64,000 bases of DNA. Source: Verrucomicrobiales bacterium (GTDB taxonomy: Bacteria; Verrucomicrobiota; Verrucomicrobiia; Verrucomicrobiales; V1-33). The position numbers and the translations under genes were made by a program. The notes under the pieces are model-generated. The model did no database searches and was not told where the DNA came from. It was given only the letters and a program-made list of their open reading frames with translations. The stretch lies in the NCBI GenBank assembly GCA_035550135.1, contig DASZQB010000131.1, forward strand, positions 66,411-130,410. Reading direction: 5' to 3'. Below are positions 351 through 48,578 of the stretch, one piece after another; position 1 is the first letter of the stretch; every line of letters starts with the position of its first letter.

Positions 351-380
351 TTTAAGCTTTTTGCGGCACGGACAAATTTG

Positions 381-2609: not shown

Positions 2610-2629
2610 ACGCGTCCGAATCTCATATT

Positions 2630-3328: not shown

Positions 3329-3520
3329 CTTACGTTTTCCGTGCCGCCCCAGACTGATTGCCAGTCTGTTCCGCGGAATCGCATAGTTGCGATATGATTC
3401 CTTTTTGAGAGCAGTCTGCAATAAAACGTTTTCGGGGAATACAGGGTTTACCTGATATTGGTTTTTGATAATATAATAAACACACACGAATGGCTTCCGA
3501 CCGGTATTGATGTTATAAAA

Positions 3521-5566: not shown

Positions 5567-5631
5567 CGTGATTTGAACAGGTCTTTGCAGGAAACGGTAC
5601 CAACGAAAAACGACGCCAACGAAAAGCAGCC

Positions 5632-5913
5632 ATGGACCAGGAAACCACCCGCGCTTTCACCAGACTTGCCTCGATGCTTCTTGAGACGCAGGCACAACTC
5701 CACACCGCCAATCTTCTTGTCGGCTTCCTCCTTAAACAACAGGGGTTCAGCCACGAAGAGTTTGAAGAATTGCGGCGCGAGAAGGAAGAGCAATTCCTTG
5801 AACGCGCTCTTCTGGATCTCTCGGATCAGGGCCAGGACTTCGTTCGCCAGATTGACGTGCGCGGATTGCTTCGCAAATACGATCCACCGCACTTTTCGGT
5901 TCCCGCCGCGTGA
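5632..5913 (+). CDS. Hypothetical small helical protein (93 aa)
   Basis: ATG-initiated ORF with host-like codon texture. I recognise no family. It ends 55 nt before the tRNA on the opposite strand. Confidence 0.5.
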   Translation: MDQETTRAFTRLASMLLETQAQLHTANLLVGFLLKQQGFSHEEFEELRREKEEQFLERALLDLSDQGQDFVRQIDVRGLLRKYDPPHFSVPAA

Positions 5914-5967
5914 GTTGTTCCCCACCCGGAACCGGCTCTCTGCCGGTAAACTTCCTGATTTCAACGG

Positions 5968-6043
5968 TGGTGGCTCGAGACGGATTCGAACCGCCGACAC
6001 GAGGATTTTCAATCCTCTGCTCTACCGACTGAGCTATCGAGCC
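5968..6043 (-). tRNA. tRNA-Phe (anticodon GAA), CCA encoded
   Basis: The reverse complement is GGCTCGA TA GCTC AGTCGGTA GAGC A GAGGA TTGAAAA TCCTC GTGTC GGCGG TTCGAAT CCGTC TCGAGCC A CCA. This is a 76-nt canonical cloverleaf with a 7-bp acceptor stem, a GTTCGAAT T-loop and anticodon GAA. Confidence 0.97.
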
Positions 6044-6143
6044 ATGAACGCCAGGGGTCGCAGGCGGACCGGGCGCAGTGCGCGGAGTCATAGCCTGGGG
6101 AGGCGGGGGGGCAAGCGATTTTTCCGCGGGAAATCGAGACAAT

Positions 6144-32297: not shown

Positions 32298-35200
32298 TCA
32301 CGGGACGACGGAGATTCTAAGGCGTGTGAAGAGCACCGGGCCCGGAGCCAGAGCGGTAAATGTCACCGGATCCGTGCCCGCTGTAGTCATGGGTGTCCAC
32401 AGGACAAGGTCGTCCGAACTCTCCGCGGTGAGCAGCACGTGCGCATCGCAAAGGCTGTCGAAACCGCGGTCAACCGTCAGGGTGGCGGTGTCGGCGGCGA
32501 CAACCGGAAGCGGCAGAGGAGTGAACGCTGCGGGATTGGTGCCCATGAAATACTCCAACAGGTTCGTGAGACCGTCGCCATCGGTGTCATCGGTAGCGGT
32601 TTGAGCCGCGGCGGCGGGAAAGCGATCAACGTAAGCGTTATAACCGGAGAGCGTGCCGGAATTGGAGAAGCCCGGCGTGCGGTGATCGCTGATGCCCCCG
32701 TAGGTGGCCGGGTTCCGGAGCTGGCTGGCCAGCGTGGCATCCGGACTGCGGGCGATCACGCAATTCCCCGCCGATTCTGTGACCGCATCAAAGCCCGGCG
32801 TGAGCATGTCCTGAAGGGAGGTATTGGCGGCACCGAAGACGAGGGCGTCGATGACGTTGTTGCAGGTCGCCGGGGAACCCGCGGTGAATTCCGCCGCCGT
32901 TCCGCGGTACACAGCCACTGCACCCGATGGCGGCAGCCAGTCATTGGCACCCGTATTGAGGCGGCCGGGTCCGCTCGCTGAATCATTCCAGAGCACAAAA
33001 AAATCGTTGGCCGGCCGGAACGAACCGCCCAACTCGAAGGCGGAAACGACAGTGCCTGCCGGACCATATACGACGAAGACAAAACCGGTTAGCGATTTGC
33101 CGCCGCCGCCGGGAGCGGTGAGTTCCACAAAGTCACTGTTATCCGGTGCAATCTGCGCGGTGTCCGCTTCATTAATAAAGGGACCCAATTCGATAAGTCC
33201 GCCATCATCCACCACAGTTAATACGCGAGAGCTGTTGCGCGAGTCGCCCGCGGGACCGCTGAGATACGTAAAACGCACCTGGCGGCTGGCAACCGGCGCG
33301 TCATTCAATGCATCGATGGGGAGTGAGGCGGCCCCCGCGATGAGAGAGCCGGAAGAGCCCGGCGGACGGATCTGTGCGGCGAGGGGATCAGCGCCGACGG
33401 GTTCACTTCGGACCAGGTAAGCGGAACTGCCCACGCCGCCGGAGATGTTCAGCACAGAGGCGCCCGCGCCCGCACTTTCCACGATGCTGGTGCATTTGAA
33501 GGACAGTAGAGACGCATCGCTGTCGCGGATGACAATACTCTGCGAGCTGTTTTGATATGCGGAGGAAAAGGCCGCCACGGTGAATGTGTTGTCACCGTTG
33601 CCTGCGGTGGCGTCGGTGGTGTGGAGAAAGAGATCCACCGTGTCCTGAGTTGCCGCCATGGTGATGGAGTCGCCAACATCCGGCAGCAGTCCCGCGGCGT
33701 CCGTGGTCAGTATGGGAGGTGAGGAAGCCGGGTTGCTGTGGGAGCGGACAAGGCGGACGCAGAGGTCAGAGACATCCGGAGGGAGGCCGTTAGTGGGCCG
33801 AACGATGGTCAGTTTCGCGGCGCCCTTGCCCCACAGTTCCGGCACGCTCGCGGCATTGGCCGTGTTGCTGAAAGTATCTGTAAATGTCAGGCCGATTGAA
33901 GCCGGGACGGGGACGAAGGCAGTGGTGCCGTCTCCCTTCGCGCCCGGCGTGCTGTAAGGCCGGGCGGCATCCAAACGATAACCGGAACTGCCCGGAGCGA
34001 TCGTCCCGAAGAAGAATGGCGCGTCGTAGGTTCCCGGCCCCTCCGCAGGCACCTTCAGCCACTGGTTCCCATAACGGGCGTCGATGGAACCGCTTCCGTC
34101 CACCTTGCGGGAATTGCTGCCGCCCTCGACGGCGCCGAACGTGTGCCCGGCTACTTCAAATCCGGCACCATTGAGCAGGCGCACCGCACTGCCATTGCGG
34201 ATATTCAGCCCGCCGGCTGCTTTGCGAATGATGGCATTGGAGAAAGCCGCCGTAATGCCCTCCGTGACAGTTCCTCCTCCGAAAACGACCAGCGCCTGGC
34301 CGGGGAGCAGAATGGAGCAGGCGGGAAATGTTTGCACGGTGGTTTCGTCCACCGCCAGCCGGAACGCAGAGAGGTCGAGATCGGCGGTGCCTGCGTTGAC
34401 GAGTTCAATGAAGCGATCGCTGTCGTCCTCGACCCCGTCTCCATTGGCATCCACGCCGGGTTTCGTATTGATCCCAACGGGGATATAGCCATTCACTTCA
34501 TTCACCACAACGGTGAGCGGCGAAGAGGCGTCATTGTCGGTCACGGTCAGCCAGCATCCGTGACCGGCGACCTGGACGCCATCCGGGGGCTCGGCCACAA
34601 AAAACGCCCGCTGGGTGCCATCCTGCCAACCATCATCCTGCGGCACCGTCAAAAAATCGGCGCTTTGGCTGCTGCCTGCGGGAATGCTGATGATCATGCG
34701 TGATACCTCTGTGCCTGGCACGAAAACCGGCCCTGGAGCGAGAACGGCCTCGGAAAAGTCCGTGGTATGGAGGGTCACTTCGATTCCACCCGGAGGGGCC
34801 AAAACAGGAGCTCCCTTGGAGTCGAGCAGTTTCACATGCGACACGATGGGCGCACTGCCCTCTGCGGCTTCAAGGTCCGCATCCACGATCTCCAGAAAGA
34901 GTTTACCGCCGGAGGGAAAAGCAGTGAAGTTGTCCCGCCCTGGCGAGGGTTCCTGCGCGGTCCACACGGCTCCATCTTTCGACAGCGATTCGGTCAGGCG
35001 ATTGCCATTGGCGTTCTCATTGAACTGCGCGGACACGCCGAGCGCTGTTTTGAGGTCCACGTCCTCGGCGACGGTGAAACTGGCGTAGAGCAGCGCATCC
35101 ACCCGCGTTTCCCCCGGCGCGGCATTGACGGTGGTGACACTTTTGGGCACCGGCGGCGCGCCGGCGGTAATGAAATTGCCGGGAACGTAAGCATTGGACG

Positions 35201-35645
35201 CATTGTGATACAGCACCACGGCGTCCGGTCCGGGCTGAATGGTGTCGTCGTCCGGCGGCAGGTTGGAAATGGAAGAGGCCTGCGTGGTGGCCAGCACAAG
35301 ATCGACCTTTGGCACTCCGGGGTTGCCCACCACAAAATAACCGGAAGCGCCAATGGCGAATCCATCGAGCGGGATCACACGGTAGAGAAGGTCACTGGCG
35401 CCGTTGAAGAAGGCGAGAGTATAGCCGTTCAGGGATTCACCCGGAACTCCCTTCAACTCAATGAATTGAAAGCCCTCGGTGGCGGGCGCACACTGAATGG
35501 TGGATGAATCGACTTCGTTAAGGCTCACAACCGCGCGGAGCTGGCTGCCCAACATCAGCGCGACGAGAGAGGCGCTCAGTTTTCCGGTGAGGGCGAAGCG
35601 GCTTTGCGAAGCCCGGAGGTACGGGAAATGGAGCCTTTTCATCAT
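32298..35645 (-). CDS. Secreted protein with three lamin-tail-domain (LTD)-like modules and a C-terminal TSP3-like Ca-binding motif plus a beta-rich tail
   Basis: N-terminal signal-like segment ...LSASLVALMLGSQLRA. LTD (PF00932)-type patterns: SLNEVDSS...FQFIELKG (N-terminus), VVVNEVNGY...DRFIELVNAGTADLDLSAFRL (~34290-34520), FINEADTAQIAPDNSDFVELTAPGG (~33000-33190). The C-terminus carries DDTDGDGLTNLLEYFMGTNP. Confidence 0.8.
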   Translation of the reverse strand: MMKRLHFPYLRASQSRFALTGKLSASLVALMLGSQLRAVVSLNEVDSSTIQCAPATEGFQFIELKGVPGESLNGYTLAFFNGASDLLYRVIPLDGFAIGASGYFVVGNPGVPKVDLVLATTQASSISNLPPDDDTIQPGPDAVVLYHNASNAYVPGNFITAGAPPVPKSVTTVNAAPGETRVDALLYASFTVAEDVDLKTALGVSAQFNENANGNRLTESLSKDGAVWTAQEPSPGRDNFTAFPSGGKLFLEIVDADLEAAEGSAPIVSHVKLLDSKGAPVLAPPGGIEVTLHTTDFSEAVLAPGPVFVPGTEVSRMIISIPAGSSQSADFLTVPQDDGWQDGTQRAFFVAEPPDGVQVAGHGCWLTVTDNDASSPLTVVVNEVNGYIPVGINTKPGVDANGDGVEDDSDRFIELVNAGTADLDLSAFRLAVDETTVQTFPACSILLPGQALVVFGGGTVTEGITAAFSNAIIRKAAGGLNIRNGSAVRLLNGAGFEVAGHTFGAVEGGSNSRKVDGSGSIDARYGNQWLKVPAEGPGTYDAPFFFGTIAPGSSGYRLDAARPYSTPGAKGDGTTAFVPVPASIGLTFTDTFSNTANAASVPELWGKGAAKLTIVRPTNGLPPDVSDLCVRLVRSHSNPASSPPILTTDAAGLLPDVGDSITMAATQDTVDLFLHTTDATAGNGDNTFTVAAFSSAYQNSSQSIVIRDSDASLLSFKCTSIVESAGAGASVLNISGGVGSSAYLVRSEPVGADPLAAQIRPPGSSGSLIAGAASLPIDALNDAPVASRQVRFTYLSGPAGDSRNSSRVLTVVDDGGLIELGPFINEADTAQIAPDNSDFVELTAPGGGGKSLTGFVFVVYGPAGTVVSAFELGGSFRPANDFFVLWNDSASGPGRLNTGANDWLPPSGAVAVYRGTAAEFTAGSPATCNNVIDALVFGAANTSLQDMLTPGFDAVTESAGNCVIARSPDATLASQLRNPATYGGISDHRTPGFSNSGTLSGYNAYVDRFPAAAAQTATDDTDGDGLTNLLEYFMGTNPAAFTPLPLPVVAADTATLTVDRGFDSLCDAHVLLTAESSDDLVLWTPMTTAGTDPVTFTALAPGPVLFTRLRISVVP

Positions 35646-35891
35646 GGAAAAACAGGGACGGAACAGGAGTTTGGAAAGCCCGGTCCCGGTTCGGTGGGAA
35701 TAGTTGTTTCCCGAAGAAGCGTCAACATCAAAACGCCACGGGCACCCTTCAACTTACCTCCGGCGGAAACGGTCCCCGGTGTATTTCCATGCCACGATTC
35801 TCCGCCTGGAACTCCATAACGCGGACGATTTGAGGTTTGACACGACTGCGCAAATTTCATGCAATTCCAATGTTTTTCACTCATTGGACTC

Positions 35892-38800
35892 ATGAAAACG
35901 CTATCACTATTCTCAATCCCGGGTGTCGCCGGATGCCTTTTATTTAGTGCGTTGAAGGCGCAGGCGCAATTTTACACGGCACCGTTTGGACCGGGCGGTT
36001 CGTGGAATCTTTACGAGGTCACGAACACCACCACGACCTGGAAACTGGGTCACCAAAATGCCATCGCGAAGCAGGCCGGGAGCACGGGAGTTTCCGGGGT
36101 GGCGGCGAATGCGACGACCGGGCACCTTGTGGCAATTGGAAGCTGGGCGGAGAACGGGCTGGTTTCGCTGATGGCGATCAACCATACGAATTCGGCGAAT
36201 GTTTGGATTGGCCTCTGCGACAACGATGATGCGGACCTTGGCGGTTCGACGTGGGCGGATGCGGGCACCAGCCAGACGAGCGATCAGTGGTACTGGGCGG
36301 GAACTTCCGGAGGCACGGGTCCGAACGGATGGCAAAAATTGAGCGAAGGCGGGGGGTATCAGGCGTTTTTCACCGGCGAGCCTAACAACTCAAACAACGA
36401 GGATGCGATCGAAATTCGCGCTGACGGAAAATGGAATGATGTGGCGCACAATACGGCGGGGACCGCGCGGCGGTCGGTGATCGAATGGGAGATCGGTTCG
36501 CTGACCCCCATCGCGGGGGCGCAGGTGATCAATCCGTTTTTTGCTGCGCCGTTCGGGCCGGGAGGAACCTACAATCTTTACATGATGGTCGGGGAGTCGG
36601 ACACGTGGATCAATGCCCATACCAAGGCGACCAGTATTTCGGCGCAGGGAACGGGGCTTCCGAGTCTGATAGGACACTTGCAAACGGGTCACCTGCTGCA
36701 GATTTCCTCGCGCGCAGAGAATTCGTTCGGGACACTGATGGCGAACCGGCTGCTGACGAATACCTATCAAATCGGCGCCAATACGGCGACGACGAACGTC
36801 TGGCTGGGTCTGACGGACAGTGACGATCCGGGCCTGAGCACCACGGAGGCGAACACGGACCGCACGGCGGGATGGATCTGGGCGGGGACCACCGGCGGCT
36901 CCGGTCCGAACGATGCGCAAACGCTGGCGCAAACCGTGGAGGCGCCGATGGCCAACGGTTTGCAATACTGGTTCAACGCAGCGACCAATGAGCCTAATAA
37001 TGCGGGCGGAACAAACTGGCCCTTTGGAGAGGATGCAGGGGAACTGCGCGGAGACGGCCACTGGAATGATCTTCCGCACAAGATTGGTCCGGCGGGAACA
37101 GCGGCGGTAACCACGGTGCGGCACTATATAATCGAATGGGATCTGGGCCTCCCGGTGCCGCCGCCGGAGGTGGCAACGCTGCCGGTGTATTACACGGCGC
37201 AGACAGGGGCGGGCGGGACGTGGAATCTGTATTATCTCGACTACACCATGGACACCTGGCAGGTGTTTGGAAACCGCTACGCCGACGCCAACTTCAACAA
37301 GGCAAGTTTCACCGGACTCCCGTCGATGGCGCTGAACAATACGGCGGGGCATTTGGTGGAAATTGCGGATCAATATGAGCACGGTCTGGTGTACCGTCTG
37401 GCGAATTTTCAGGGCATCTGGCTGGGATTGACCGACAATGAGGGTTTTGGCGGTCAGGAGGCGGGCAATGCTGCCAGCAATCCGACGAATCAGGTCCAGC
37501 CGTTCTGGGTATGGAGCGGGACCAACCCGCCGAGCACGGCGACTTATCGCCGGTGGAATGCCGGTGAGCCGAACGACAGCGGGGGGAATGAGGATGCGGG
37601 CGAAATGACGACCACGGGTTTCATGAACGACAACCAGATCAATAACGTCAACGGGGCCATCCGGCGTGCTCTGGTGGAATGGGATATCCAATCTGCTGTT
37701 CCCATCGTTGGCGCCGTGCAGGTGGCACCGATTCTGGATGGAAGCAGGACCCTGACCAATACGCCGGCCGCGGGCACATGGGCGATCAAGCAGATTTACG
37801 ATCCGATCGAGGCGAACCTGTTTACCGCCACGAAATTCTCACTGGACGGGCCCACGAACGGACGGGTATTCGAGGGCACGGCCGCGGTGATGAATCAGAA
37901 CGACACGCTGGTTTCGCCGGCTACGGCAATCAACTACCCAGGCTGGGGTGACACGGGGCTTTTTGGCGGAGACCTTCCCACCGTGGGCGAAACGGCGAAT
38001 ACCGATGACAACCAGTTCACGCGCTACGCGAGAACGAAGGTGAACGTCACAGAGGAGGGAGACTACACGTTCAATATCCACACGGACGACGGGATGGCGT
38101 TCCGCGTGGCCGGTCAGACGTTTATCTCGGTCTTCGGTCTTGGATTCATCGACTTTGTGGACAAGGGCACCGTGTTCGTGCCTTACGGGGGAGCGGACTC
38201 CAACACGCGGGCGGTGGTGCATTTGGCTCCGGGAGTTTATGATGTGGAACTGCTGTGCTGGGATGCGACGGGCGGAAGTTCGGCGGAGGTTTCGTGGGCC
38301 AGGGGCGTCTTTGCGACGGAAGAATCCGGGGCGGGCCAATGGAGTCTGGTGGGAGACCCGGCTTCAGTCTACCCAACGCCGGTGATCCCGCTGAATATGA
38401 CCGGCTCTCCCGCTTATGGGGACGGTCTTTGGGGACTGCATGTGGTGAGAGGCGCAGGGACCATTGCCAGTCTGACGGATGCCGTGAATGCCTTGCAGGC
38501 GGTTGCGGGCACGCATGATTACGGCACCGCGGCGGTCATCAATCATTCGGATCCGGAATATCCGGGCACGGGCGGCATCTTTCCCGGCGAACTGACGCTG
38601 CCGGGGGACACAGGGGCGGCGGATAACGATTTCGCGGTGCATGGACGCGCGAGACTGGCGATAACCACCGCTGGTCTCCAGACTATCTGCATTCGGTGCA
38701 GCGACTCCGCCGCGCTTCGCATCAAAGGTCAAACATGGCAGCAGATGGGTCCGGAGGCGGGGCTCGATCCCGCGGACTCCTCCACTATCTTTATCTACCG

Positions 38801-39941
38801 CAACAATCCGGCTAACAATACCACAACTGGAGAATTCGCGGCGAGGGCGCTGATCAATCTACCGGCGGGAAATCACGAGATCGAGTTTGTCACCTTTGAT
38901 CGCGACAACTCCTTCTTTGTCGAGATCTACTCACGGAGCGGCAATCAAATCAACACGGCTGAATATGCCGCCGGCACGGCAAATAACGGTCTGGCGAATC
39001 CGAGCGGCGACTATCGTCTGATCGGTTATAAAGGGGATGGAACTCTGTCGAGCCTCGGTGTGCTGGCTCCAGGCTGGCTTCGTCAAGGCACTACGCCGAG
39101 CGCCGCACAGCCCGGGGGCTGGCCGGGAACCAACATCGCCAACTTCGAGACATGGATTCTGGCTAACGGCGTGACGCCGGATTCCACCGCACGGGAAACC
39201 GTGAACGATCGTGATCCGCAAAATCCCACGACGGATCTGGGCATTCCCAATGGTCGCGACATCTGGCGTCAAACCACTGCTGATGACAATTTTTATGTGG
39301 AGCAGTTCGACGCCACGCTGGTCGTGCCGGAAGCGGGCACTTATTCCATCGGCTGGCAGGGAGATGACGGCGGCTACATCGAAGTCCGCGGTCTGCCGGC
39401 AGGTGTGGGATTCAGCCGGCTTGAGTCGATGGCGGTGGCGACACCGGCGATCGTTCCTGCGAGCGATGGCACGGTGAACGGGCGGCTGAGATTGGAAGGG
39501 ACCGGCGGAAACACGCGGACCATGGCGAAGATCAGTTTCCCGGACACGCTTAGTTATCCCGCGCAATTCCCTATTCGTTCTCTGCACTTCGAAGGCAGCG
39601 GCGGCTGCTACTGGGAGATTTTCGCGGGTCCCGGCAGCGGCTACGGACGGATGGTGACCCTCCTCCAAAGCGGTTCCGCGAGCGCCACCGTGGCCGATGT
39701 GGACGGCCTGCAACTGGTGGGCCCGGACATCGAGGTGCTGAACGTGAGCCTCCTGCCAGGCCCGGCCTTCTCCTTCACATTCTCGTCGCAGCAGGGAGTG
39801 ACCTACACGATCTCACGGACGCTCGATCTCGTGAATTGGACAAACGTCGGGACTATCGTGGCCACAGGTCCGACCTCGACCTACAACTCGGGCGTCCTTA
39901 CCGCTGCGGACATGCGGTATCTCTACCGGGCCACGAAGTAG
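35892..39941 (+). CDS. Secreted protein with three C-type-lectin-like modules followed by PA14-like modules
   Basis: Signal peptide MKTLSLFSIPGVAGCLLFSALKAQAQ (ATG 35892; the track start is 35859). There are three ~190-aa repeats, each with GHL(V/L)xI...(W/Y)xGL(C/T)D...EPN...E(D)A...W/M-ND. EPN codons are at 36378-36386, 36990-36998 and 37566-37574. WND codons are at 36432-36440 and 37062-37070. Later segments resemble PA14 (EEGDYTFNIHTDDGMAFRVAG; AGTYSIGWQGDDGGYIEVRG). Confidence 0.8.
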   Translation: MKTLSLFSIPGVAGCLLFSALKAQAQFYTAPFGPGGSWNLYEVTNTTTTWKLGHQNAIAKQAGSTGVSGVAANATTGHLVAIGSWAENGLVSLMAINHTNSANVWIGLCDNDDADLGGSTWADAGTSQTSDQWYWAGTSGGTGPNGWQKLSEGGGYQAFFTGEPNNSNNEDAIEIRADGKWNDVAHNTAGTARRSVIEWEIGSLTPIAGAQVINPFFAAPFGPGGTYNLYMMVGESDTWINAHTKATSISAQGTGLPSLIGHLQTGHLLQISSRAENSFGTLMANRLLTNTYQIGANTATTNVWLGLTDSDDPGLSTTEANTDRTAGWIWAGTTGGSGPNDAQTLAQTVEAPMANGLQYWFNAATNEPNNAGGTNWPFGEDAGELRGDGHWNDLPHKIGPAGTAAVTTVRHYIIEWDLGLPVPPPEVATLPVYYTAQTGAGGTWNLYYLDYTMDTWQVFGNRYADANFNKASFTGLPSMALNNTAGHLVEIADQYEHGLVYRLANFQGIWLGLTDNEGFGGQEAGNAASNPTNQVQPFWVWSGTNPPSTATYRRWNAGEPNDSGGNEDAGEMTTTGFMNDNQINNVNGAIRRALVEWDIQSAVPIVGAVQVAPILDGSRTLTNTPAAGTWAIKQIYDPIEANLFTATKFSLDGPTNGRVFEGTAAVMNQNDTLVSPATAINYPGWGDTGLFGGDLPTVGETANTDDNQFTRYARTKVNVTEEGDYTFNIHTDDGMAFRVAGQTFISVFGLGFIDFVDKGTVFVPYGGADSNTRAVVHLAPGVYDVELLCWDATGGSSAEVSWARGVFATEESGAGQWSLVGDPASVYPTPVIPLNMTGSPAYGDGLWGLHVVRGAGTIASLTDAVNALQAVAGTHDYGTAAVINHSDPEYPGTGGIFPGELTLPGDTGAADNDFAVHGRARLAITTAGLQTICIRCSDSAALRIKGQTWQQMGPEAGLDPADSSTIFIYRNNPANNTTTGEFAARALINLPAGNHEIEFVTFDRDNSFFVEIYSRSGNQINTAEYAAGTANNGLANPSGDYRLIGYKGDGTLSSLGVLAPGWLRQGTTPSAAQPGGWPGTNIANFETWILANGVTPDSTARETVNDRDPQNPTTDLGIPNGRDIWRQTTADDNFYVEQFDATLVVPEAGTYSIGWQGDDGGYIEVRGLPAGVGFSRLESMAVATPAIVPASDGTVNGRLRLEGTGGNTRTMAKISFPDTLSYPAQFPIRSLHFEGSGGCYWEIFAGPGSGYGRMVTLLQSGSASATVADVDGLQLVGPDIEVLNVSLLPGPAFSFTFSSQQGVTYTISRTLDLVNWTNVGTIVATGPTSTYNSGVLTAADMRYLYRATK

Positions 39942-39965
39942 CAAGCGGCAAACGAATCGAATGAC

Positions 39966-40003
39966 CGGCCTGCCTCCGTACCCGGCGGCAGGCCGCTTTG
40001 TAC
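39966..40003 (+). terminator. Probable intrinsic terminator after the lectin/PA14 gene
   Basis: 9-bp perfect stem CGGCCTGCC (39966-39974) / GGCAGGCCG (39988-39996), followed by a weak T tract CTTTGT. Confidence 0.5.
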
Positions 40004-40152
40004 TCCTCCGGAACCGGCGTTTACAATTCTCCGCGAACTTTTCTTGTGCAGGCACGGTTTCTGCCTCTAAATGGGGCATTCAGAAATTCCATGCGCGTCC
40101 CCGGCACGGTTCTTCCTGTTGCTGTTCCGACTCTAGCTCTGATCTAACGAAT

Positions 40153-40842
40153 ATGTACAACGCGCTCTGGAAATCCTTTGGACTCGTCACCGGCATTTGG
40201 ACGCTCTCTCAGACGGCAGCCTCTGCGGCGCTGGTTCTCTCGGCGGACTTCAATGCGAACAACGGCGGGTTTACGGTAGCAAACGCTGGCACTCCGGCAG
40301 GTCCCTGGACATGGGACGGAGTCGGCACGTGGCTCGCCAACGGCGAGGGAAACCTGGGCACCCCGACGGCCAGCGAATTGACCTCTCCCGCGTTTAATGT
40401 TCCTGCCGCGGGACCCCTTACGGTGGCCATCAGTCACCGCTACAGTTTTGAATTTGATGGAACGCGCTGGGATGGCGGTCGCCTGCAGTACAGCCAGAAC
40501 GGAGGAGCGTGGACGAACGTCTCGGCAGCCTTCACGTCCGGCGGTTATGATGGAGTGATTACCGGCAACAACGCTTTGAACGGCAGCCAGGGCTGGAACG
40601 GTGATTCCGCCGGATACGGGACAGGAAGTTTCATCACAAGCCAGGTCTCTATTCCTGGGTTTGCTGCGGGAGACTCCGTGCAGATTCGCTTTCAAGCCGG
40701 CTGGGATGAATTCTCCACGGGAACTGCGCCGAATTGGCAAATCACGAATGTGAATGTGGACGCGGTGCCCGAGCCTGCGACGACGGGAATGCTTGCTGCG
40801 GCTGCCGCAGGAATCCTTTGTGTGCGCCGTCGGCGTCGTTAA
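40153..40842 (+). CDS. PEP-CTERM protein with a beta-sandwich (MAM/galactose-binding-like) domain
   Basis: From ATG 40153: MYNALWKSFGLVTGIWTLSQTAASA (signal). The end reads NVNVDAVPEPATTGMLAAAAAGILCVRRRRR (PEP-CTERM). The track ORF 39961 adds an implausible 64-aa leader that spans the upstream terminator hairpin. Confidence 0.85.
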   Translation: MYNALWKSFGLVTGIWTLSQTAASAALVLSADFNANNGGFTVANAGTPAGPWTWDGVGTWLANGEGNLGTPTASELTSPAFNVPAAGPLTVAISHRYSFEFDGTRWDGGRLQYSQNGGAWTNVSAAFTSGGYDGVITGNNALNGSQGWNGDSAGYGTGSFITSQVSIPGFAAGDSVQIRFQAGWDEFSTGTAPNWQITNVNVDAVPEPATTGMLAAAAAGILCVRRRRR

Positions 40843-41093
40843 TTCAAGGGGCGGGATTTTTCGGAAAGTCATTCCGGTTTGCGGAGGAGGGATTGCCGCT
40901 CTTTTCCCGTAGAGACGTAGTCCCTTTCCGTCATGAAAGGCCGGTGATTCTGTTATGCTGCCTGTGCCTCAGCGGCACGGTCACGGCCGGAAATAATGAC
41001 CGTGAAGACTCGCGACAGCGGAACTTCACGAACCTCCCGTCGGCGTTTCCTCCGGGGCAGGTTTACTGAATGTGTAGTAATAAGACCCGGAGA

Positions 41094-41936
41094 TCAGGCC
41101 TTTCTGCGGCGGCGCATCAGCCCGGCGGCAGCGGCGAGAGCGAGGGAAACAGCGGCGGGTTCAGGGACGCTGACGCTGGCAGCGGCGGCGGCTTGAATTT
41201 CCGCAGCGGTCAGCACGGTATCATAGACACGGAGGCCGTCGATGCGCCCGCTCATCTGGTCGGAGTCATTGCCGCCGAGGCGGCCGCCAATCGTGAGCCG
41301 GGCTGCGGCCAGATCGTCCCCAAAAAGGCTGTTGTCGGCACCGCCGAGGAGATTGCCGTTTAAATAATAATTGATCGCGCCATTATTATAAGTGGCGGCG
41401 ATGTGCACCCAGTTTCCAGGAATGACCGCAAAGGGATCCGAATCGTTATCGAGCACGCCGTAGTTGGTGAACCGGATCGTGGAGGAACTTCCATCGGTTG
41501 TGGCAAGGCGAAGCGCGAGACCCCAGCCGCGGTCAGCTCCGGTGGCGCTTCCTGTCGAAATGGGCCGGTAGGAGCGCGCGGCGATGTCTCCGGCGGTCGG
41601 ATTCACCCATGACATAACGGTAAAAGCCCCGGTGCGCGGGATGTTCATGACCGGGTTGACATTGTCCGCGCCGCTGGTGAAAAAGCTGTCTGTGGTGCTC
41701 GGACCATAGCCAATGGAGGTGCCCACCGCATTGGTCACCGTGATGGCCCCGTAAACACCGTTTGGCACTCCCGCCTGTCCGTAAGCATTCGGCCCGATGG
41801 GTACCGCCGCAACATGCCCTCCGGTGGAGTCGATGAGGTTTCCGGAGGCTTCATCCTGATTCCATGAGGCGATCAGAGCAGCGCGGGCGGGCAGGCAGAA
41901 ACTCAGAAGAAGAAGCGGAAACGAAAGGGATTTCAT
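41094..41936 (-). CDS. PEP-CTERM protein with a LamG/concanavalin-like (Laminin_G_3) domain
   Basis: Signal peptide MKSLSFPLLLLSFCLPARA. NWVHIAATYNNGAINYYLNGNLLG and GRIDGLRVYDTVLTAAEI are LamG_3-type. The end reads SVSVPEPAAVSLALAAAAGLMRRRRKA. Confidence 0.85.
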   Translation of the reverse strand: MKSLSFPLLLLSFCLPARAALIASWNQDEASGNLIDSTGGHVAAVPIGPNAYGQAGVPNGVYGAITVTNAVGTSIGYGPSTTDSFFTSGADNVNPVMNIPRTGAFTVMSWVNPTAGDIAARSYRPISTGSATGADRGWGLALRLATTDGSSSTIRFTNYGVLDNDSDPFAVIPGNWVHIAATYNNGAINYYLNGNLLGGADNSLFGDDLAAARLTIGGRLGGNDSDQMSGRIDGLRVYDTVLTAAEIQAAAAASVSVPEPAAVSLALAAAAGLMRRRRKA

Positions 41937-42051
41937 CGAATTAAAAATGAGTGACGATCAAGCATTTACGAAATCAATTGGCGGGGCTCAATCCCAAAAT
42001 TTGATACAAATCGAATTTTTTCGCAGGTCCGGGAACTGATTGGTGGCCGGA

Positions 42052-42148
42052 GGTGCAAAATTCTGAAATTTTCCCGTGCCAAACGGCGGGAGATTGCCTA
42101 GTCTCGCCGCCCTTTAGGGAAAACTCCGATTCGCTGGTGCAAAATTCT
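42052..42148 (+). repeat. Two perfect 13-bp direct repeats GGTGCAAAATTCT upstream of the secretin gene
   Basis: Copies lie at 42052-42064 and 42136-42148, 84 bp apart start to start (about 8 helical turns), in an AT-richer leader. The function is unknown; they may be an operator or activator site. Confidence 0.5.
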
Positions 42149-42187
42149 TACTCATCTTCCAAACGGCCTTCCGGTTGCGTACTTCGA

Positions 42188-44677
42188 TTGCCTCAGCGCG
42201 GGGCGGTTGCGGGGGCGCTCTTACTTGGTTTATCGATGATGCCCGCGGCGCTGGCCGGGAGTGGCAAGGGTGATGAACCCCTGATCGTTTCCAAAGAGGT
42301 GGAGCGCCGGCTCAAAGCCAAAGATGAAGCTCAGCGGCTGGTGGCGGAGGGAGATGAACTCGCGGCTTCAGGAGATCAGTGCGGCGCGGCTGACAAGTAC
42401 TATGCAGCGGCGCAAATGCTTCGGCCCGGAGCGCCAGGGACCCTGCAGTTGCGCAACGAGGCGGTGAAAAAGTTCAGTGTATCGGGCGTGGCCTGTGCAA
42501 AGGAACAGGCGCATAATGGCGAGCATGAAAAGGCCTCGACGCGGGTGGAGCAGATCCTGGCGGATAACATGGCGCCCAGGGACAAGCCTGCGCTGGCACT
42601 GCAAAGGCATCTCAAGGACACGGACCGCTACAACCCCGCGTTGACGCCGAAGCATGTCGCGGATGTGAAAAAGGTGTCCAATTTGTTGATGATGGGAGAG
42701 CACTTCACGCAACTTGGCGATTATGATGCTGCGGAGAAATCCTACAATCAGGTGCTGGCCATCGATGCCACCAATACCGCAGCCCGTCGCGGACTGGAGG
42801 GGGTGGAAAGACTGATCACGAATTATTACAAGGCGGCGCGTGATCATACGCGGATAAAGATGCTCAACGACGTGGATCGCATCTGGGAGACCAAGGTGCC
42901 GTTTACCGGAGCGCGTCCCACCGGCATGGCCAACCCGGACGACGTCTATATTGGCGGCAGTGCGGTGGCTTCCAAGCTGCGCACGCTGATCATTCCGCAC
43001 GTCTCGTTTGCGGACGCATCACTGCCGGAGGTCGTTTCCTATCTGATCAAAAAGAGTATCGAAGTGGACCCGCAGGGACGCGGGGTGAATATCATTTGGA
43101 CGCCGGGGAACGGCGCTGCGACAAATCCGGTGACGCTGGAGTTGAGAAATGCCAGTCTTGGAGACGTGCTGCGCCAGGTGTGTCTGCTCAGCGGCACACG
43201 GTTTCAGACCGACGGCGGGCTCGTGAGGATCTCGGTGCAGGGCGGCAATGCCCTGGAGACGCGTCAGTTCAAGGTGCCGCCCGGATTTCTTTCCACGGCT
43301 GCCACGGCCGTCCCCGCGGAGGCGGCTGACCCTTTTGCAACCGGCGCGGCGGCAGCGGACAAGCCGAAGCTGGGCCGCCTCGACCCGAAGACGTTTCTTG
43401 AGCAGCAGGGTGTCGAGTTTCCCGCTGGATCGAGGGCCGGTTACAATGCGTCGCAAAATCTCCTGACCGTGACCAACACCTCGGAGAACCTGGACGCCAT
43501 CGCCACGCTTGTGGAAACGCTGACCACCTCCGGACAAAAGCAGGTGCTGGTTCAGATCGTGCTTCTCAAGTGCAGCCAGACGAATTTTGAGGAGCTGGGT
43601 TTTGATGTCTTCATGGACGCGTTCAAGGCGGGCGGAGGCGTTTTTGCGGAAGGCGGCACTTTTGGAAATTCCCCGGATTTCAGCCAGGGAGGCACATCCA
43701 CCGGCAACTTCGGCAATACCACGTTCGCGCCTCTCAACGTTCCCTTCAATGTGGTGAACGGTCCGATGACCGCCGGCTTGCGCAGTTCATACGAGCTCAC
43801 CCGCACGCAGACGATCGATGACCTCATCAATCTGGCGAACGGCATCAATCCAGTCCAGCCAGGACGGAGTCCGTACAATTTTGCAATCGGGGGGATATTC
43901 ACCAATCCGCGTTTTCAGGCGCTCTTCCGCGGGCTCAGCCAGAAGAAGGGAATCGACCTTTCCGTGGCCACGAAGACCATTGTGAAGAGCGGCCAGAAAG
44001 CCTCCGCGTTCTCCGGACGGAAGTTTCTGTATCCCACTGAATTCGATCCGCCGCAGATCCCGCAGACCATCCGGCGGAATCAGATTATCCTGTTCGACGA
44101 CCAAGGATTTCCCTTCATCGTCGATCTTCCGAATGATCAGGCGCCGGTGACACCAGCCACGCCCAGTTCGTTCCAGGAAAAGGACATCGGCTCCAGCGTC
44201 GAAGTGGAGGCGAACATTGCCGAGGACAACTATACGGTGGACCTGAACCTCGCCGTCGGTTTCACCGAGTTTGATGGATTTATCAACTACGGCACGCCGA
44301 TCATGACGGACAATGGCGTGGTCCTGACAGACAACCGCATCATTCAGCCGGTCTTCTCCAAAGTGGCTGCGAATACGCAGGTGCAGATTTACGACGGTCA
44401 AACCGTCGCGATTGGCGGCCTGTCCACAGCCAAGGTTGAAACGATTGAGGACAAAGTGCCGATCTTCGGGAGCATCCCCATCATCGGCAGACTCTTTAAG
44501 AGCAACCTGCAGCGCCACACGCGCACTGCGGTGGTCTATTTCGTCACGGTCAAGATTGTGGATCCCGCCGGCGAGGGCGTTCACGGAAGCAAGGTGCTTG
44601 AGGCCGCCGCCTCCGCGGGCGTGAACGTTTCCGATCTTTCCGGGTCCGATTCCATTCTGCTTCCGCCTCCCCAGTAA
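42188..44677 (+). CDS. Secretin-family outer-membrane channel (type II/III secretion system protein family) with a TPR-like N-terminal region
   Basis: C-terminal secretin domain (PF00263): VQIYDGQTVAIGGLSTAKVETIEDKVPIFGSIPIIGRLFKSNLQRHTRTAVVYFVTVKIV. N0/STN-like module: VTLELRNASLGDVLRQVCLLSGTRFQTDGGLVRI. TPR-like helices lie upstream of it. The start is uncertain. TTG 42188 gives the signal peptide (M)PQRGAVAGALLLGLSMMPAALAG; the track start GTG 42053 lies inside the direct repeat. Confidence 0.85.
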   Translation: MPQRGAVAGALLLGLSMMPAALAGSGKGDEPLIVSKEVERRLKAKDEAQRLVAEGDELAASGDQCGAADKYYAAAQMLRPGAPGTLQLRNEAVKKFSVSGVACAKEQAHNGEHEKASTRVEQILADNMAPRDKPALALQRHLKDTDRYNPALTPKHVADVKKVSNLLMMGEHFTQLGDYDAAEKSYNQVLAIDATNTAARRGLEGVERLITNYYKAARDHTRIKMLNDVDRIWETKVPFTGARPTGMANPDDVYIGGSAVASKLRTLIIPHVSFADASLPEVVSYLIKKSIEVDPQGRGVNIIWTPGNGAATNPVTLELRNASLGDVLRQVCLLSGTRFQTDGGLVRISVQGGNALETRQFKVPPGFLSTAATAVPAEAADPFATGAAAADKPKLGRLDPKTFLEQQGVEFPAGSRAGYNASQNLLTVTNTSENLDAIATLVETLTTSGQKQVLVQIVLLKCSQTNFEELGFDVFMDAFKAGGGVFAEGGTFGNSPDFSQGGTSTGNFGNTTFAPLNVPFNVVNGPMTAGLRSSYELTRTQTIDDLINLANGINPVQPGRSPYNFAIGGIFTNPRFQALFRGLSQKKGIDLSVATKTIVKSGQKASAFSGRKFLYPTEFDPPQIPQTIRRNQIILFDDQGFPFIVDLPNDQAPVTPATPSSFQEKDIGSSVEVEANIAEDNYTVDLNLAVGFTEFDGFINYGTPIMTDNGVVLTDNRIIQPVFSKVAANTQVQIYDGQTVAIGGLSTAKVETIEDKVPIFGSIPIIGRLFKSNLQRHTRTAVVYFVTVKIVDPAGEGVHGSKVLEAAASAGVNVSDLSGSDSILLPPPQ

Positions 44678-44752
44678 GCCGCCCCTCCTGTTTCCCCTTT
44701 ACAGACACGGCCTTCTGAAGGAGGCCGCATCTTACTCTTCCCTCCACCAACC

Positions 44753-46477
44753 GTGAGCAGCAATCCTGACCCGACCGGGGATCGCCGCAGTGTCCTGCCG
44801 CCGCGGCGGGATGCCGGAACGCCTCCTCCCTCCGCCCCTCCTCTCTCATCGCCTCCGAAGTCCTATTCGGTGGATGAGATGATGACAACTCTGCGCTCGC
44901 CCGAGGGTGGCAAACGCCGGCGCCGCAGCGTGCAACCGGTCGTTCAATCGCGCCGGCGCCGGCGTTTGTGGATCGTCCTCGGTCTCAGTGTGGTGTCGCT
45001 GGTGCTCGCGGGGTATTTCGGGTTCCGCTTCTATCAGCGAAACCGGCTAGAAGGGGAGACTTTCCGGGATGGTGTCAACCGGCGCATTTCCGAAGCCCTT
45101 GGCTGCCAGGTGGAGTTCAACCGGATCTATGATGGCGGTGATGAATCCCTCGCTGCCAAAGAAGCCCGTTTCGAGGTTCGGGATCCCGGCGACTTGATTC
45201 AATCCGGCACCTTCTCAAACCTGAGCGCATCGCTGACCGGCTCTTCGTGGGTGACGGACGAATGGGGCATTCTGATGCTCAATATCAACGAGGGGACCAT
45301 CACGCTGAATCCGAGCCGTCCGGATTTCCCGAACGACAGTACGGGTATCGTGCCGCACAGCGGCGGCGGAAGGCACGTCGGCGGATTCGGCATCAATCCG
45401 GAACCGGAGCGCATCACGCTGGATGAAGTCAGGTTCCTCAAAGGGCTCACGGTTGAATGGCCGGCATCCTCCGGCGCCGGTCAGACCACTGAGGCGATCA
45501 AGAAGTTGCGCGGGCACGCAAAGATCGCGCGCAGCGGAGGAATGAGCGGAACGTTCATCGACGGCAGCGTGGCTCTCAACCAAATGCCCGAAATGCGCAT
45601 TCAGAACCTGAACTGGAAACTCAGCGGGCGGAAACTGGATGTCGCAGGCGGCAGCATTAAATTCGGCGGACGCGCCCAGGCATCGGTGTCGGGCAAGGCC
45701 GATCTTGTTAGTGATGGCTCGGCGGAATTCACGGCGGATTTTGAATCGACACCGCTGGCGACGCTCCTTCCTCCGGCATGGCACGAAGCGGTGCTGGGCC
45801 TGTTTTCCGCGCAGAAGACGACGTTCCGCGCGAGCTTTGGCAAGGGACCGGAGCGCGTGTTCGAGGGGGACTTCAAGGTGGTGGGAGCCATCTTCCAGGG
45901 GTTCACCTTCTTTGATAAAGCCTCTGAAGCGCTGGGGAGAAATGTAGAAGTGCAGCGTCCGGAATTCCCGGTGCTAACCGGTCACTTTAAGTGGTCCCCA
46001 TCGACCGGCCTCGAACTGACAAACCTTTTCGGTGAGCGCGGTGAGTTGCTGCGCATGAGCGGGTCTGTCACCCTCACTGAAAGCGGCCCGGTAAAGGGAC
46101 GCTTGAAGCTTTCCACCAGCGAGAACGCGCTCCGCAACGTGAAAAAATCCGCGCCCCAGCTTTTCGGACCGTTCGAGGACGGCTGGGCGTCTTTCGAGTT
46201 TAACGTCAGCGGCACGGCCAAGGCAATCGTCGATGACATTGACTTGAAAACGGCCGCCCGCGGCCCCGACAGCCCTGCTCCGGACGGGGCCGCTTCAACT
46301 CCCTCTCCCACGCAGCAAGTCCCGGCCGCCCCTCAAAATCCGGCGGCCGCACCGGCTCCGAATCGGAGAGCGCCGGCACCGGCACCCTCTGCTCCGCCGC
46401 GTCCGAAACCGTCGAACGCGGAGCTGGAAAAGCAGATGGAGGATTTGCTGCGCGCTAACAAGTCCGCGCCGCGGTGA
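44753..46477 (+). CDS. Hypothetical bitopic membrane protein with a Pro/Ala-rich C-terminal tail
   Basis: Start at GTG 44753 (alternative ATG 44879). It has a Pro/Arg-rich N-terminus, a single TM helix RLWIVLGLSVVSLVLAGYFGF, a ~430-aa extracytoplasmic region, and the tail PAPDGAASTPSPTQQVPAAPQNPAAAPAPNRRAPAPAPSAPPRPKP. It lies 75 nt downstream of the secretin on the same strand. Confidence 0.6.
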   Translation: MSSNPDPTGDRRSVLPPRRDAGTPPPSAPPLSSPPKSYSVDEMMTTLRSPEGGKRRRRSVQPVVQSRRRRRLWIVLGLSVVSLVLAGYFGFRFYQRNRLEGETFRDGVNRRISEALGCQVEFNRIYDGGDESLAAKEARFEVRDPGDLIQSGTFSNLSASLTGSSWVTDEWGILMLNINEGTITLNPSRPDFPNDSTGIVPHSGGGRHVGGFGINPEPERITLDEVRFLKGLTVEWPASSGAGQTTEAIKKLRGHAKIARSGGMSGTFIDGSVALNQMPEMRIQNLNWKLSGRKLDVAGGSIKFGGRAQASVSGKADLVSDGSAEFTADFESTPLATLLPPAWHEAVLGLFSAQKTTFRASFGKGPERVFEGDFKVVGAIFQGFTFFDKASEALGRNVEVQRPEFPVLTGHFKWSPSTGLELTNLFGERGELLRMSGSVTLTESGPVKGRLKLSTSENALRNVKKSAPQLFGPFEDGWASFEFNVSGTAKAIVDDIDLKTAARGPDSPAPDGAASTPSPTQQVPAAPQNPAAAPAPNRRAPAPAPSAPPRPKPSNAELEKQMEDLLRANKSAPR

Positions 46478-46517: not shown

Positions 46518-47906
46518 GTGGACCTCTTTCCTTCCAGCGCCAAAATCGCCGGCCCTGAGCCGGAAAGAGTTCTAACGGTCACGCAGGTGACGCGGCAGGT
46601 GAAGGACGTGCTGGAGCAGCAGTTGGGCGCAGTGTGGGTGCAGGGAGAAATCAGCAATCACCGGAGGCAGACGAGCGGGCATCATTACTTCACACTGAAG
46701 GATGCCGGGGCGCAGTTGAGTTGTGTCCTGTTTAAAGGAAACGCCCAGTTTGTCAGGGCGCCGCTGGCGGATGGATTGATGGTTCAGGTCTTTGGAGACA
46801 TCACTGTTTATGAGGCGCGCGGGCAGTATCAAATGCTGGTGAGAAAAGTGCAGGCCGCGGGGCAGGGGGCGCTTCAGGCGAGATTCGAGGAACTGAAACG
46901 GCGGCTGCTGGCTGAAGGATTGTTTGCCGCGGAGATCAAGAAAAGCATTCCGCGGTTTCCGAGGGTGGTTGCGATCGTGACCTCGTCCACGGGAGCCGCG
47001 CTGCAGGACATGCTGAACATCCTGAGCCGCCGCGCCCCGTATCTGCATATTCTCGTGGCTTCGGTTCGGGTGCAGGGAGTGGGCGCGGAGCATGAAATTG
47101 CCGCGGCGCTGCATTTGCTGAGCGGGGAAAGTGGACGGGGACTGCCGGTCGTTGACACCGTCGTGGTGGCGCGCGGCGGCGGAAGTCTCGAAGACCTGTG
47201 GTGCTTCAATGAAGAGGTGGTCGCGCGGGCCATTTTTGCATGCCGCATCCCGGTGATCAGCGCGGTGGGACATGAGATCGATTTCACGATCAGCGACTTT
47301 ACCGCGGACCTTCGTGCGCCCACGCCCAGCGCTGCCGCGGAACTTCTGGCGCCGGATCGTGAAGAACTGCTTGCCGTCCTGACACAACAGGGCCTGCGCA
47401 TGCATCGCCGTGTGTTGCAGGCCGTGGATACCGCTCAGCGGGTAATCGATCTCACGGCGCGCGGCCCATTTCAACGCGATCCTGAACGGGTGCTGCTTCC
47501 GTGGCGTCAGCGCCTCGATGAGGCGGCTGGCGCGTTGCAAACCTTCATCGGTGAAGCCATCCAGCACCGGACGGAGGCCGTGCAAGTGCTGCAGCATCGC
47601 CTGGAATTGAAGCGCCCCGACCGCGTGCTGGCGGAAAGGGGCGCGGCGGTGAAGATGCTTCAGGAACGAATGACTTCGCGTGTCACTGTGGCGATCGAGA
47701 GGCTGCGGGCGGCTCTGAATCAGCGCGCCGGCCTGCTGCGCACGCTGGGCCCGGAAGCAACGCTGGAGCGCGGATTCACCTGCACCCTCGATGCGAAAGG
47801 CCGCGTGGTGCGTGAAGCCGCGCAACTCCAGCCGGGCGAGGAATTCGAAACGCGGTTCCGGAAGGGGCGCGTGCACGGTGTGGTGAAGACGGTGGAAGTT
47901 TCCTAA
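46518..47906 (+). CDS. xseA: Exodeoxyribonuclease VII large subunit
   Basis: VTQVTRQVKDVLEQQLGAVWVQGEISNHRRQTSGHHYFTLKDAGAQLSCVLF (OB fold). The central catalytic region includes IVTSSTGAALQD and RGGGSLEDLW. GTG start. Confidence 0.9.
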   Translation: MDLFPSSAKIAGPEPERVLTVTQVTRQVKDVLEQQLGAVWVQGEISNHRRQTSGHHYFTLKDAGAQLSCVLFKGNAQFVRAPLADGLMVQVFGDITVYEARGQYQMLVRKVQAAGQGALQARFEELKRRLLAEGLFAAEIKKSIPRFPRVVAIVTSSTGAALQDMLNILSRRAPYLHILVASVRVQGVGAEHEIAAALHLLSGESGRGLPVVDTVVVARGGGSLEDLWCFNEEVVARAIFACRIPVISAVGHEIDFTISDFTADLRAPTPSAAAELLAPDREELLAVLTQQGLRMHRRVLQAVDTAQRVIDLTARGPFQRDPERVLLPWRQRLDEAAGALQTFIGEAIQHRTEAVQVLQHRLELKRPDRVLAERGAAVKMLQERMTSRVTVAIERLRAALNQRAGLLRTLGPEATLERGFTCTLDAKGRVVREAAQLQPGEEFETRFRKGRVHGVVKTVEVS

Positions 47907-48085: not shown

Positions 48086-48128
48086 AAGTGGCGTGACAAA
48101 TGTCCCGTTTCCGGCAATTCCTCGAACC

Positions 48129-48578
48129 ATGCCTCAATCTCTCGCTCAGATTTACGTCCACCTCATTTTCTCCACGAAGGACCGGATGCCAGTCATATCC
48201 GAAGAGGTGAAGCCGTGGCTTCATGCCTACATCGCGGGTGCGTTGAATGCGATTTCCAACTCTGCGCTTAAGGTCGGAGGCGTGGAGGATCATGTGCATA
48301 TTCTGTTCCGGCTTTCGAAAAACAGCGCCCTGACAGATGTTGTGAAGGCGGCGAAGGTTGAGTCATCCAAATGGATGAAGAAGGAAGGAGGTGTCAGGGA
48401 ATTCGCGTGGCAGGGAGGATACGGAGCGTTTTCAGTGAGTGCCTCGCACCTTGAGGACGTCACGGAATATGTTGCGAAACAGGAGGAACGGCACCGGCGT
48501 CGTACTTTTCAGGAGGAGTTCCGGATTCTCCTGGAGCGATATAAGGTTGAATACAATGAGGCATGGGTGTGGGATTGA
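48129..48578 (+). CDS. REP-associated tyrosine transposase (RAYT) / IS200-like Y1 transposase family protein
   Basis: MPQSLAQIYVHLIFSTKDR..., HUH motif in EDHVHILF, catalytic Tyr context EYVAKQEERH (Y-x3-Q); PF01797-like. 149 aa from ATG 48129 (track start 48093). Confidence 0.85.
   Translation: MPQSLAQIYVHLIFSTKDRMPVISEEVKPWLHAYIAGALNAISNSALKVGGVEDHVHILFRLSKNSALTDVVKAAKVESSKWMKKEGGVREFAWQGGYGAFSVSASHLEDVTEYVAKQEERHRRRTFQEEFRILLERYKVEYNEAWVWD

Follow-up and report, generated by a model that had tools for sequence, protein, structure and literature searches.

A conserved TPR-secretin/AsmA-like gene pair within a mosaic region of a Verrucomicrobiales genome

The stretch of 64,000 nucleotides analysed here, in the following called the window, was taken from the genome of a Verrucomicrobiales bacterium (assembly GCA_035550135.1, contig DASZQB010000131.1, positions 66,411 to 130,410 of the forward strand). 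On its plus strand it carries a gene for a secretin with an N-terminal tetratricopeptide repeat (TPR) region (42053-44677), followed by a gene for a bitopic membrane protein of 574 aa (44753-46477), which we refer to as the partner. In a previous inspection of the letters alone, the sequence-only reading, both genes had been counted as part of an island for the display of lectin-like proteins next to a giant kinase gene, and its six named genes were indeed recovered as long open reading frames (ORFs) at the positions given there, with the domains assigned to them (ORF list, Pfam). Taken together, our results make it likely that the region is a mosaic of independent units, among them a conserved two-gene module of TPR-secretin and AsmA-like partner with a probable envelope-spanning role. 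The 14-kb “lectin display island”, in turn, consists of unrelated gene units that are neighbours by chance.

The secretin gene pair

A scan of one genome per species revealed 583 related loci; the 80 best of them, each with flanks of 10 kb, were retained, and all window proteins were compared by tblastn with 83 loci and then with 11 more. Near the secretin homologues the partner alone recurs, and the LamG and xseA genes that flank the pair in the window were found in its closest relatives only. Clustering of the crudely called ORFs unveiled two recurrent architectures. Type A, whose genes were named via NCBIfam, shows the order Amuc_1102, PilM-like Amuc_1101, Amuc_1100, Amuc_1099, secretin, coaE, rho, and rnd, all in the same direction. 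Type B consists of the secretin and, downstream of it, the partner, surrounded by unrelated housekeeping genes, e.g., ribF, hpf, MFS, DUF1501, AraC, or DUF179. With at least 1.5 kb of downstream sequence each, 67 genome loci and the window could be classified, and these 68 loci comprise 28 of type A, 23 of type B (including the window), and 17 of neither type. Both genes of the pair share one strand and are separated by a median of 68 nt (75 nt in the window); the pair was also found in 8 further contigs and is present in at least 30 loci overall. A gspC-M operon was not found in these 30 or more loci, only the secretin being adjacent to the partner. The proposal that the secretin and the bitopic protein downstream of it belong together is, thus, upheld by the recurrence of the pair. 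At least one cultured strain, Luteolibacter marinus NBU1238 (L041), carries it as well, and the partner family comprises hundreds of representatives at 50% identity.

The coupling of the two genes reaches far into the partner family. A profile search of 1.84 billion representatives provided 687 family members (E ≤ 1e-3), and in the distant members P0100, P0118, P0126, and P0133 (E = 1e-45 to 4e-24) a TPR-secretin is still located directly upstream, the partner identity being as low as about 21% in P0126 and P0133. P0140 (E = 4e-22), in contrast, shows no secretin beside its partner-family gene. Because the former four keep the secretin and P0140 does not, the secretin-linked proteins can be regarded as a specialised branch of AsmA-like proteins.

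At least five genomes carry a type A and a type B locus, and in L084 both are located side by side, in the order LamG gene (reverse), type B secretin, partner, xseA, Amuc_1102, PilM-like gene, Amuc_1100, Amuc_1099-like gene, and type A secretin. In the window, xseA is followed by an IS200-like Y1 transposase gene on the plus strand (48093-48578; Pfam Y1_Tnp, E = 1e-22), and this site matches the position at which L084 harbours the full Amuc_1102-1098 operon (L084 13274-20585). The transposase site may be a rearrangement breakpoint that parted two secretin modules.

Two further observations concern the surroundings of related secretins. In L020, L025, L029, L033, and L090, all belonging to one type B clade, a DUF5916 protein of about 700 aa is encoded behind the pair, either next to the partner or a few genes further on. 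In this clade it may represent a third component; the window lacks it. The secretins of L005 and L001 (57% identical to that of the window) and those of the 17 loci of neither type appear to be truly solitary TPR-secretins. Downstream of the latter 17 are genes for LepA, PFOR, FG-GAP, and similar proteins, so that no alternative partner emerges. A 515-aa gene that lies downstream in some loci (C22) was considered as a divergent partner and proved to encode a sulfatase.

The secretin itself matched the NCBIfam model NF042912, named “Amuc_1098 family type IV pilus outer membrane protein”, over aa 61-843 with 763.6 bits (E = 2e-229), which is barely above the cut-off of 750 bits. Its scores remained far under the cut-offs of the NCBIfam models for GspD, PilQ, MshL, and SctC, with 65 bits for TIGR02517 (cut-off 351), 74 bits for TIGR02515 (cut-off 284), and 44 bits for TIGR02516 (cut-off 238). 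Pfam detected the secretin domain (E = 2e-23) and weak TPR matches, and the AlphaFold2 (AF2) model of the monomer, with a mean predicted local distance difference test score (pLDDT) of 65, displays a helical region at residues 16-218, then a pair of alpha/beta N-domains, and finally the barrel core (436-775), into which a disordered segment is inserted. Both Pfam and AF2 agree with the combination of TPR N-terminus and C-terminal secretin domain expected of the Amuc_1098 family. The listed secretin ORF begins too early; a signal peptide without lipobox is located at aa 46-68, and the likely start is therefore TTG 42188 or ATG 42236.

Amuc_1098 is a PilQ-like protein with a pilotin-like N-terminal TPR region and, among the outer-membrane proteins of Akkermansia muciniphila, the one of highest abundance (PMC4960237). 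Its gene lies together with Amuc_1099-1102 (PMC5332112), and this Amuc_1098-1102 locus, also named MUL2, is syntenic across Verrucomicrobiales (PMC13174399). No homologue of Amuc_1099-1102 was found in the window, where the upstream neighbour of the secretin is a divergent LamG/PEP-CTERM gene. Nor does the window contain an ATPase or platform protein of a type II secretion system (T2SS), type IV pilus (T4P), or type III secretion system (T3SS) according to Pfam, or an ORF with a prepilin motif according to a motif scan, and the sequence-only reading was right both in stating the absence of such core genes and in setting the secretin apart from pilus and T2SS genes. Its term “orphan secretin” needs correction in view of the match to NF042912, which shows that the protein is no generic orphan.

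Regarding the placement of the secretin relative to GspD and PilQ, which the same reading had put forward as a check, the two models remained far below cut-off, as mentioned above, and a neighbour-joining tree provided the position within the related proteins. The type A secretins group together in this tree, and those of type B form several clades outside, one of which includes the window. Orthology with the operon-linked Amuc_1098 members was not found, the tree placing the window secretin with the partner-linked ones. The window secretin is an Amuc_1098/PilQ paralogue that left the Amuc_1102-1099 pilus-like operon.

The partner gave no Pfam or NCBIfam match of its own and was assigned as a bitopic AsmA-like (GspN-like) protein via its family profile. 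Hydropathy analysis revealed one transmembrane (TM) helix at aa 71-93, and both termini are Pro-rich; its former description as a Pro-rich bitopic protein is, thus, correct but incomplete, as the protein is AsmA-like in addition. It starts with a conserved cytoplasmic N-terminus; behind the TM helix, about 375 aa form a beta-rich periplasmic domain, which a Pro-rich linker connects to a C-terminal helix that is conserved as well. The same order of segments is seen in 13 close homologues (45-62% identical). The AF2 model (mean pLDDT 74, core 85-92) displays a long N-terminal helix and then about 20 long beta-strands.

Weak but consistent Pfam matches were obtained among the 13 close homologues, i.e., T2SSN/GspN in three (best E = 1.4e-5), YhdP in two, and DUF2125 in two of them, and precomputed T2SSN matches exist for P0072 and, faintly, for the partner gene of L093. 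DUF748 was matched by 24 of 90 family members, YhdP by 12, AsmA by 6, and TamB by 5. An alignment of these 90 members was compared with E. coli AsmA by hhalign and yielded a probability of 96% (E = 3.8e-9, 316 columns), with residues 54-397 of the partner aligned to 24-392 of AsmA, directly past the TM helix in both proteins. This 96% was reached by the broad alignment only, the comparison of the narrow 13-sequence profile with AsmA being not significant, and sequence and profile searches of the Protein Data Bank (PDB) with the partner gave no match. On the basis of these sequence comparisons, membership of the partner in the AsmA-like superfamily is supported. The possibility of a fused or divergent Amuc_1099 or Amuc_1100 was rejected, with a probability of less than 2% in hhalign and only the TM helix aligned.

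The cytoplasmic N-terminus of the partner (44753-45030) is strongly conserved, including the motif PDPTGDRR..RRDAGTPPP, and a basic RRRRS run is located shortly before the TM helix. Likewise, the C-terminal helix (ELEKQ; 46380-46477) is conserved behind the Pro-rich linker. The conserved termini are candidate regulatory or docking motifs.

Possible roles of the pair

Lipoproteins, in contrast to soluble substrates, require GspN, an AsmA-like bitopic inner-membrane protein, for their GspD-dependent localisation at the surface (PMC12802150). In a comparable arrangement, oligomers of the window secretin would form a channel in the outer membrane, with the fused TPR region taking a pilotin-like role, and the partner would be held in the inner membrane by its single helix, its beta-groove of about 20 strands and about 10 nm reaching toward the periplasmic N-domains of the secretin. 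With a helix in the inner membrane and a groove of this length, the pair could bridge the envelope, and the earlier suggestion of a partner that spans the periplasm is compatible with the predicted fold. TamB is known to dock to the adjacent outer-membrane protein TamA, and YdbH likewise to YnbE. Because of these precedents, together with GspN-GspD, we infer an envelope-spanning secretin/beta-groove unit, and with it a physical contact of the two proteins, a cargo, and a direction of transport. By analogy, the groove might cover acyl chains, either those of surface proteins with a lipid anchor or those of lipids, while these travel to the secretin or through it; if a pseudopilus or an ATPase is required, its gene would lie at another place in the genome. 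A self-contained conduit of two components, with a handover of lipid-anchored proteins or lipids from groove to secretin and with neither pseudopilus nor dedicated ATPase, is unlikely in our view; if true, it would represent a new minimal route of secretion or lipid transfer, widespread in Verrucomicrobiales.

Two other roles have to be considered for the pair, both of which appear unlikely. The type B secretin could be an ordinary T4P or T2SS gate with its machinery encoded elsewhere, and the partner a PilP/GspC-like anchor or alignment subunit without any role for lipids or lipoproteins. The secretin is homologous to the PilQ-like Amuc_1098 and has kept N-domains of the kind to which such subunits bind in other secretins, and genomes with a type B locus usually also have the pilus-like operon. 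The partner, however, shows no detectable similarity to the PilN/O/P-like Amuc_1099 and Amuc_1100 or to the Pfam families GspC and PilP, and its homology is to lipid-groove proteins.

This very homology, extending to AsmA, YhdP, TamB, and DUF748, would also be in line with a TamB/YhdP/YdbH-like phospholipid bridge that uses the secretin only as a docking partner and serves lipid homeostasis, not protein export, all the more as known AsmA-like proteins need a dedicated outer-membrane partner that is encoded adjacent (TamB-TamA, YdbH-YnbE). Still, a large gated pore would be an odd choice as a mere anchor, and GspN, the nearest small AsmA-like relative beside secretins, acts on lipoproteins (PMC12802150). 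Since secretin-free distant members such as P0140 exist, the secretin-linked subfamily looks specialised, and a pure lipid bridge seems unlikely.

Several results weigh against the reading we prefer, i.e., a mosaic region with a conserved and probably envelope-spanning secretin/AsmA-like module. Only 80 of the 583 related loci entered the set with flanks, and the neighbour-joining tree carries no bootstrap or other support values. In L005, with a secretin 57% identical to that of the window, PGI is located upstream and the partner is absent, and 17 loci have a related secretin in neither of the two contexts, e.g., L037, L040, L050, and L070. The partner itself stays below the gathering score of Pfam T2SSN (PF01203; 16.1 vs. 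29.6 bits), and a Foldseek search of the PDB with its model revealed no significant match.

Neighbouring genes and the rest of the window

Divergent from the secretin, on the minus strand, lies a gene for a protein with a ConA-like Laminin_G_3 domain (E = 4e-20) and a PEP-CTERM motif (41094-41936; 19.3 bits), termed LamG/PEP-CTERM here. Orthologues in the same divergent position were found in L091 (76% identical) and L084 (64%), whose secretins are 70% and 64% identical to that of the window. L091 shows the YceI and LamG/PEP-CTERM genes in reverse, then secretin and partner, with YceI standing where the window has the other PEP-CTERM gene of the region (PEP1), the lectin, the LTD, and the kinase gene. 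L084 shares LamG, secretin, partner, and xseA, and it has no lectin, LTD, or kinase gene. The housekeeping gene xseA for the large subunit of exonuclease VII (46518-47906, plus strand; Pfam Exonuc_VII_L, E = 3e-97) is 77% identical in L084 and syntenic with the pair only there. At 59-61% secretin identity, L092 and L093 have an AraC or DUF5122 gene upstream, followed by secretin, partner, and DUF179, and the LamG/PEP-CTERM gene is absent beside the secretin in L092, L093, L004, and all other loci examined. Outside the sub-lineage of the window, this neighbour is not conserved.

Given that the divergent arrangement and the shared intergenic region are kept in the window, L091, and L084, the LamG/PEP-CTERM protein could be a dedicated substrate or accessory of the pair in this sub-lineage. 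We consider this very unlikely, as the gene is already absent at 59-61% secretin identity (L092, L093, L004) and the unrelated xseA is also still syntenic in L084; the adjacency is, therefore, most simply explained by residual synteny.

The gene for the exported lamin-tail-domain (LTD) protein of 1115 aa (32298-35645, minus strand; Pfam LTD, E = 2e-14) is followed after 74 bp, on the same strand, by that of the giant receptor-type Hanks kinase (26200-32223; Pkinase, E = 1e-39, aa 25-271), so that the sequence-only reading gave both this and the secretin-partner spacing correctly. The kinase displays an ER/K-rich stretch of about 460 aa (approximately aa 1040-1500), a TM helix at 1524-1546, and an external C-terminus of about 460 aa. 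LTD orthologues, P0226 (76% identical) and P0227 (65%, in L094), have a same-strand gene 69-75 bp downstream, no secretin, and other flanks. In L094 (3728-13041), AP_endonuc_2 is located upstream of the LTD gene, and downstream is the gene for a Pkinase protein of 2013 aa, which shares 57% identity with the window kinase along the first 1020 aa; on the P0226 contig, Lon_C genes are located upstream, and the gene downstream bears no annotation and is truncated at 672 aa. As the orthologues keep the downstream gene, a kinase gene in L094, and have no secretin, the LTD gene and the receptor kinase gene form a conserved unit of their own, in which the exported LTD protein may act as ligand or partner of the receptor-type kinase. 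Giant LTD proteins are not special to this region, because a second one, an exported protein of 2032 aa with two LTD, CHB_HEX_C, Fn3_assoc, and a CotH kinase domain, is encoded at 53500-59598 on the minus strand.

Diverging from the LTD gene, the gene for the exported lectin/PA14 protein of 1360 aa is located on the plus strand (35859-39941; Lectin_C, E = 1e-12; PA14, E = 4e-8). The shared region between the two agrees with the earlier description, measuring 213-246 bp depending on the ATG chosen for the lectin gene, and three C-type-lectin-like repeats are visible in the translation. Neither a homologue in the related loci nor a relative in a metagenome scan was found for this protein. PEP1 follows on the same strand (39961-40842; PF07589, 24.2 bits, cut-off 20.7) and has no homologue in the related loci save a 34-aa match to a PEP-CTERM tail in L084. 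The lectin/PA14 gene and PEP1 are lineage-specific insertions.

Both PEP-CTERM genes of the region were confirmed by TIGR02595 (cut-off 16 bits), with 21.3 bits for 39961-40842 and 16.7 bits for 41094-41936. A motif scan revealed three PEP-CTERM-like ORFs in the window, two in L084, one in L091, and none in 1.24 Mb around 78 other secretins. An abundance of PEP-CTERM genes as the cause of a chance adjacency was considered and rejected, since only the sub-lineage of the window shows the motif frequently. Sorting of PEP-CTERM proteins is the task of exosortase, and they are not known to depend on a secretin, which speaks against a secretin-dependent display of these neighbours. No exosortase gene was found within the window.

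In sum, a kinase-regulated system in which the stand-alone secretin exports or displays the LTD, lectin/PA14, and PEP-CTERM proteins is extremely improbable: the genes are adjacent in the window, the putative cargo proteins all have signal peptides, and L091 and L084 have kept the divergent LamG/PEP-CTERM gene beside the secretin, but about 88 related secretins have no homologue of LTD, lectin/PA14, PEP1, or the kinase nearby, the genes past LamG already differ at 70% secretin identity, the LTD-kinase unit travels alone, and PEP-CTERM-like ORFs are lacking around the 78 other secretins. The conservation of the secretin together with LTD, lectin, and PEP-CTERM genes had been set beforehand as the check for such an island, and this linkage was not conserved. 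Among the best 80 loci, tblastn detected no homologue of the LTD, lectin/PA14, PEP-CTERM, or xseA genes and two generic kinase-domain matches. This comparison of gene neighbourhoods largely refutes the island proposed by the sequence-only reading, and the vicinity of lectin, LTD, and kinase genes has no special significance.

The window outside the flagged region consists of housekeeping or unrelated genes. At its beginning (1-5566) it resembles an exopolysaccharide (EPS) locus, with a partial PEP-CTERM ORF (1-273) beside a Wzy_C/O-antigen-ligase-like gene, a sugar transferase, and Polysacc_synt_2; EPS loci of this kind often go along with exosortase systems. The remaining content includes, besides this locus and xseA, beta-oxidation genes, a gene of the Orn/DAP/Arg-decarboxylase family, and a tricorn-like protease, and further genes are the second LTD/CotH giant, glnD, a superoxide dismutase, a PIN-domain gene, and the IS200-like transposase. 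Two ORFs, of 207 aa (5573-6196, plus strand) and 489 aa (62480-63949, minus strand), gave no Pfam or NCBIfam match. A scan for promoters and terminators at 32-49 kb yielded fewer sites than shuffled sequence and is, therefore, uninformative.

Comparison with known systems

Full-text literature on secretins together with AsmA-like proteins or DUF748 revealed GspN papers only, and a description of the two-gene module was not found there. The function of GspN was reportedly assigned only in 2025. We regard the secretin/AsmA-like pair as a moderately novel two-gene module and the island as ordinary. The pair touches on two open questions, namely, how secretins handle lipid-anchored cargo and which outer-membrane docks are used by AsmA-like bridges, and being stripped-down and conserved, it offers a simple natural system for the link between secretins and AsmA-like proteins. 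In Verrucomicrobiales, the much-studied PilQ-like channel of Akkermansia has paralogues with a different partner, which is of relevance for the annotation of “Amuc_1098 family” matches as pilus components.

In comparison with substrates of the PEP-CTERM/exosortase system, a C-terminal PEP-CTERM motif is encoded by two genes of the region and by three of the window as a whole. Sorting by this system accounts for the anchoring of their products without a secretin, and the surroundings of other type B secretins lack the motif.

The window secretin resembles Amuc_1098 in its N-terminal TPR/pilotin-like region and C-terminal secretin domain. However, it is only 35-41% identical to the operon-linked members and falls outside their clade, and its gene is neither preceded by Amuc_1102-1099 nor followed by coaE-rho, an AsmA-like gene being located downstream instead.

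Similar to TamB-TamA and YdbH-YnbE, the pair combines an N-terminally anchored AsmA-like protein with a presumed outer-membrane partner encoded beside it. In contrast to both, this outer-membrane partner is a secretin and not an Omp85 barrel or a small lipoprotein, and the groove domain is much shorter than that of TamB or YhdP.

GspN (PulN/EpsN), which some T2SSs have as an AsmA-like accessory protein, is likewise a bitopic inner-membrane protein with a beta-rich periplasmic domain and a gene tied to a secretin. Compared with it, the partner has about twice the length (500-570 aa), carries additional conserved cytoplasmic and C-terminal segments, and scores below the T2SSN gathering threshold, and its gene belongs to a two-gene unit with the secretin instead of a gspC-O operon.

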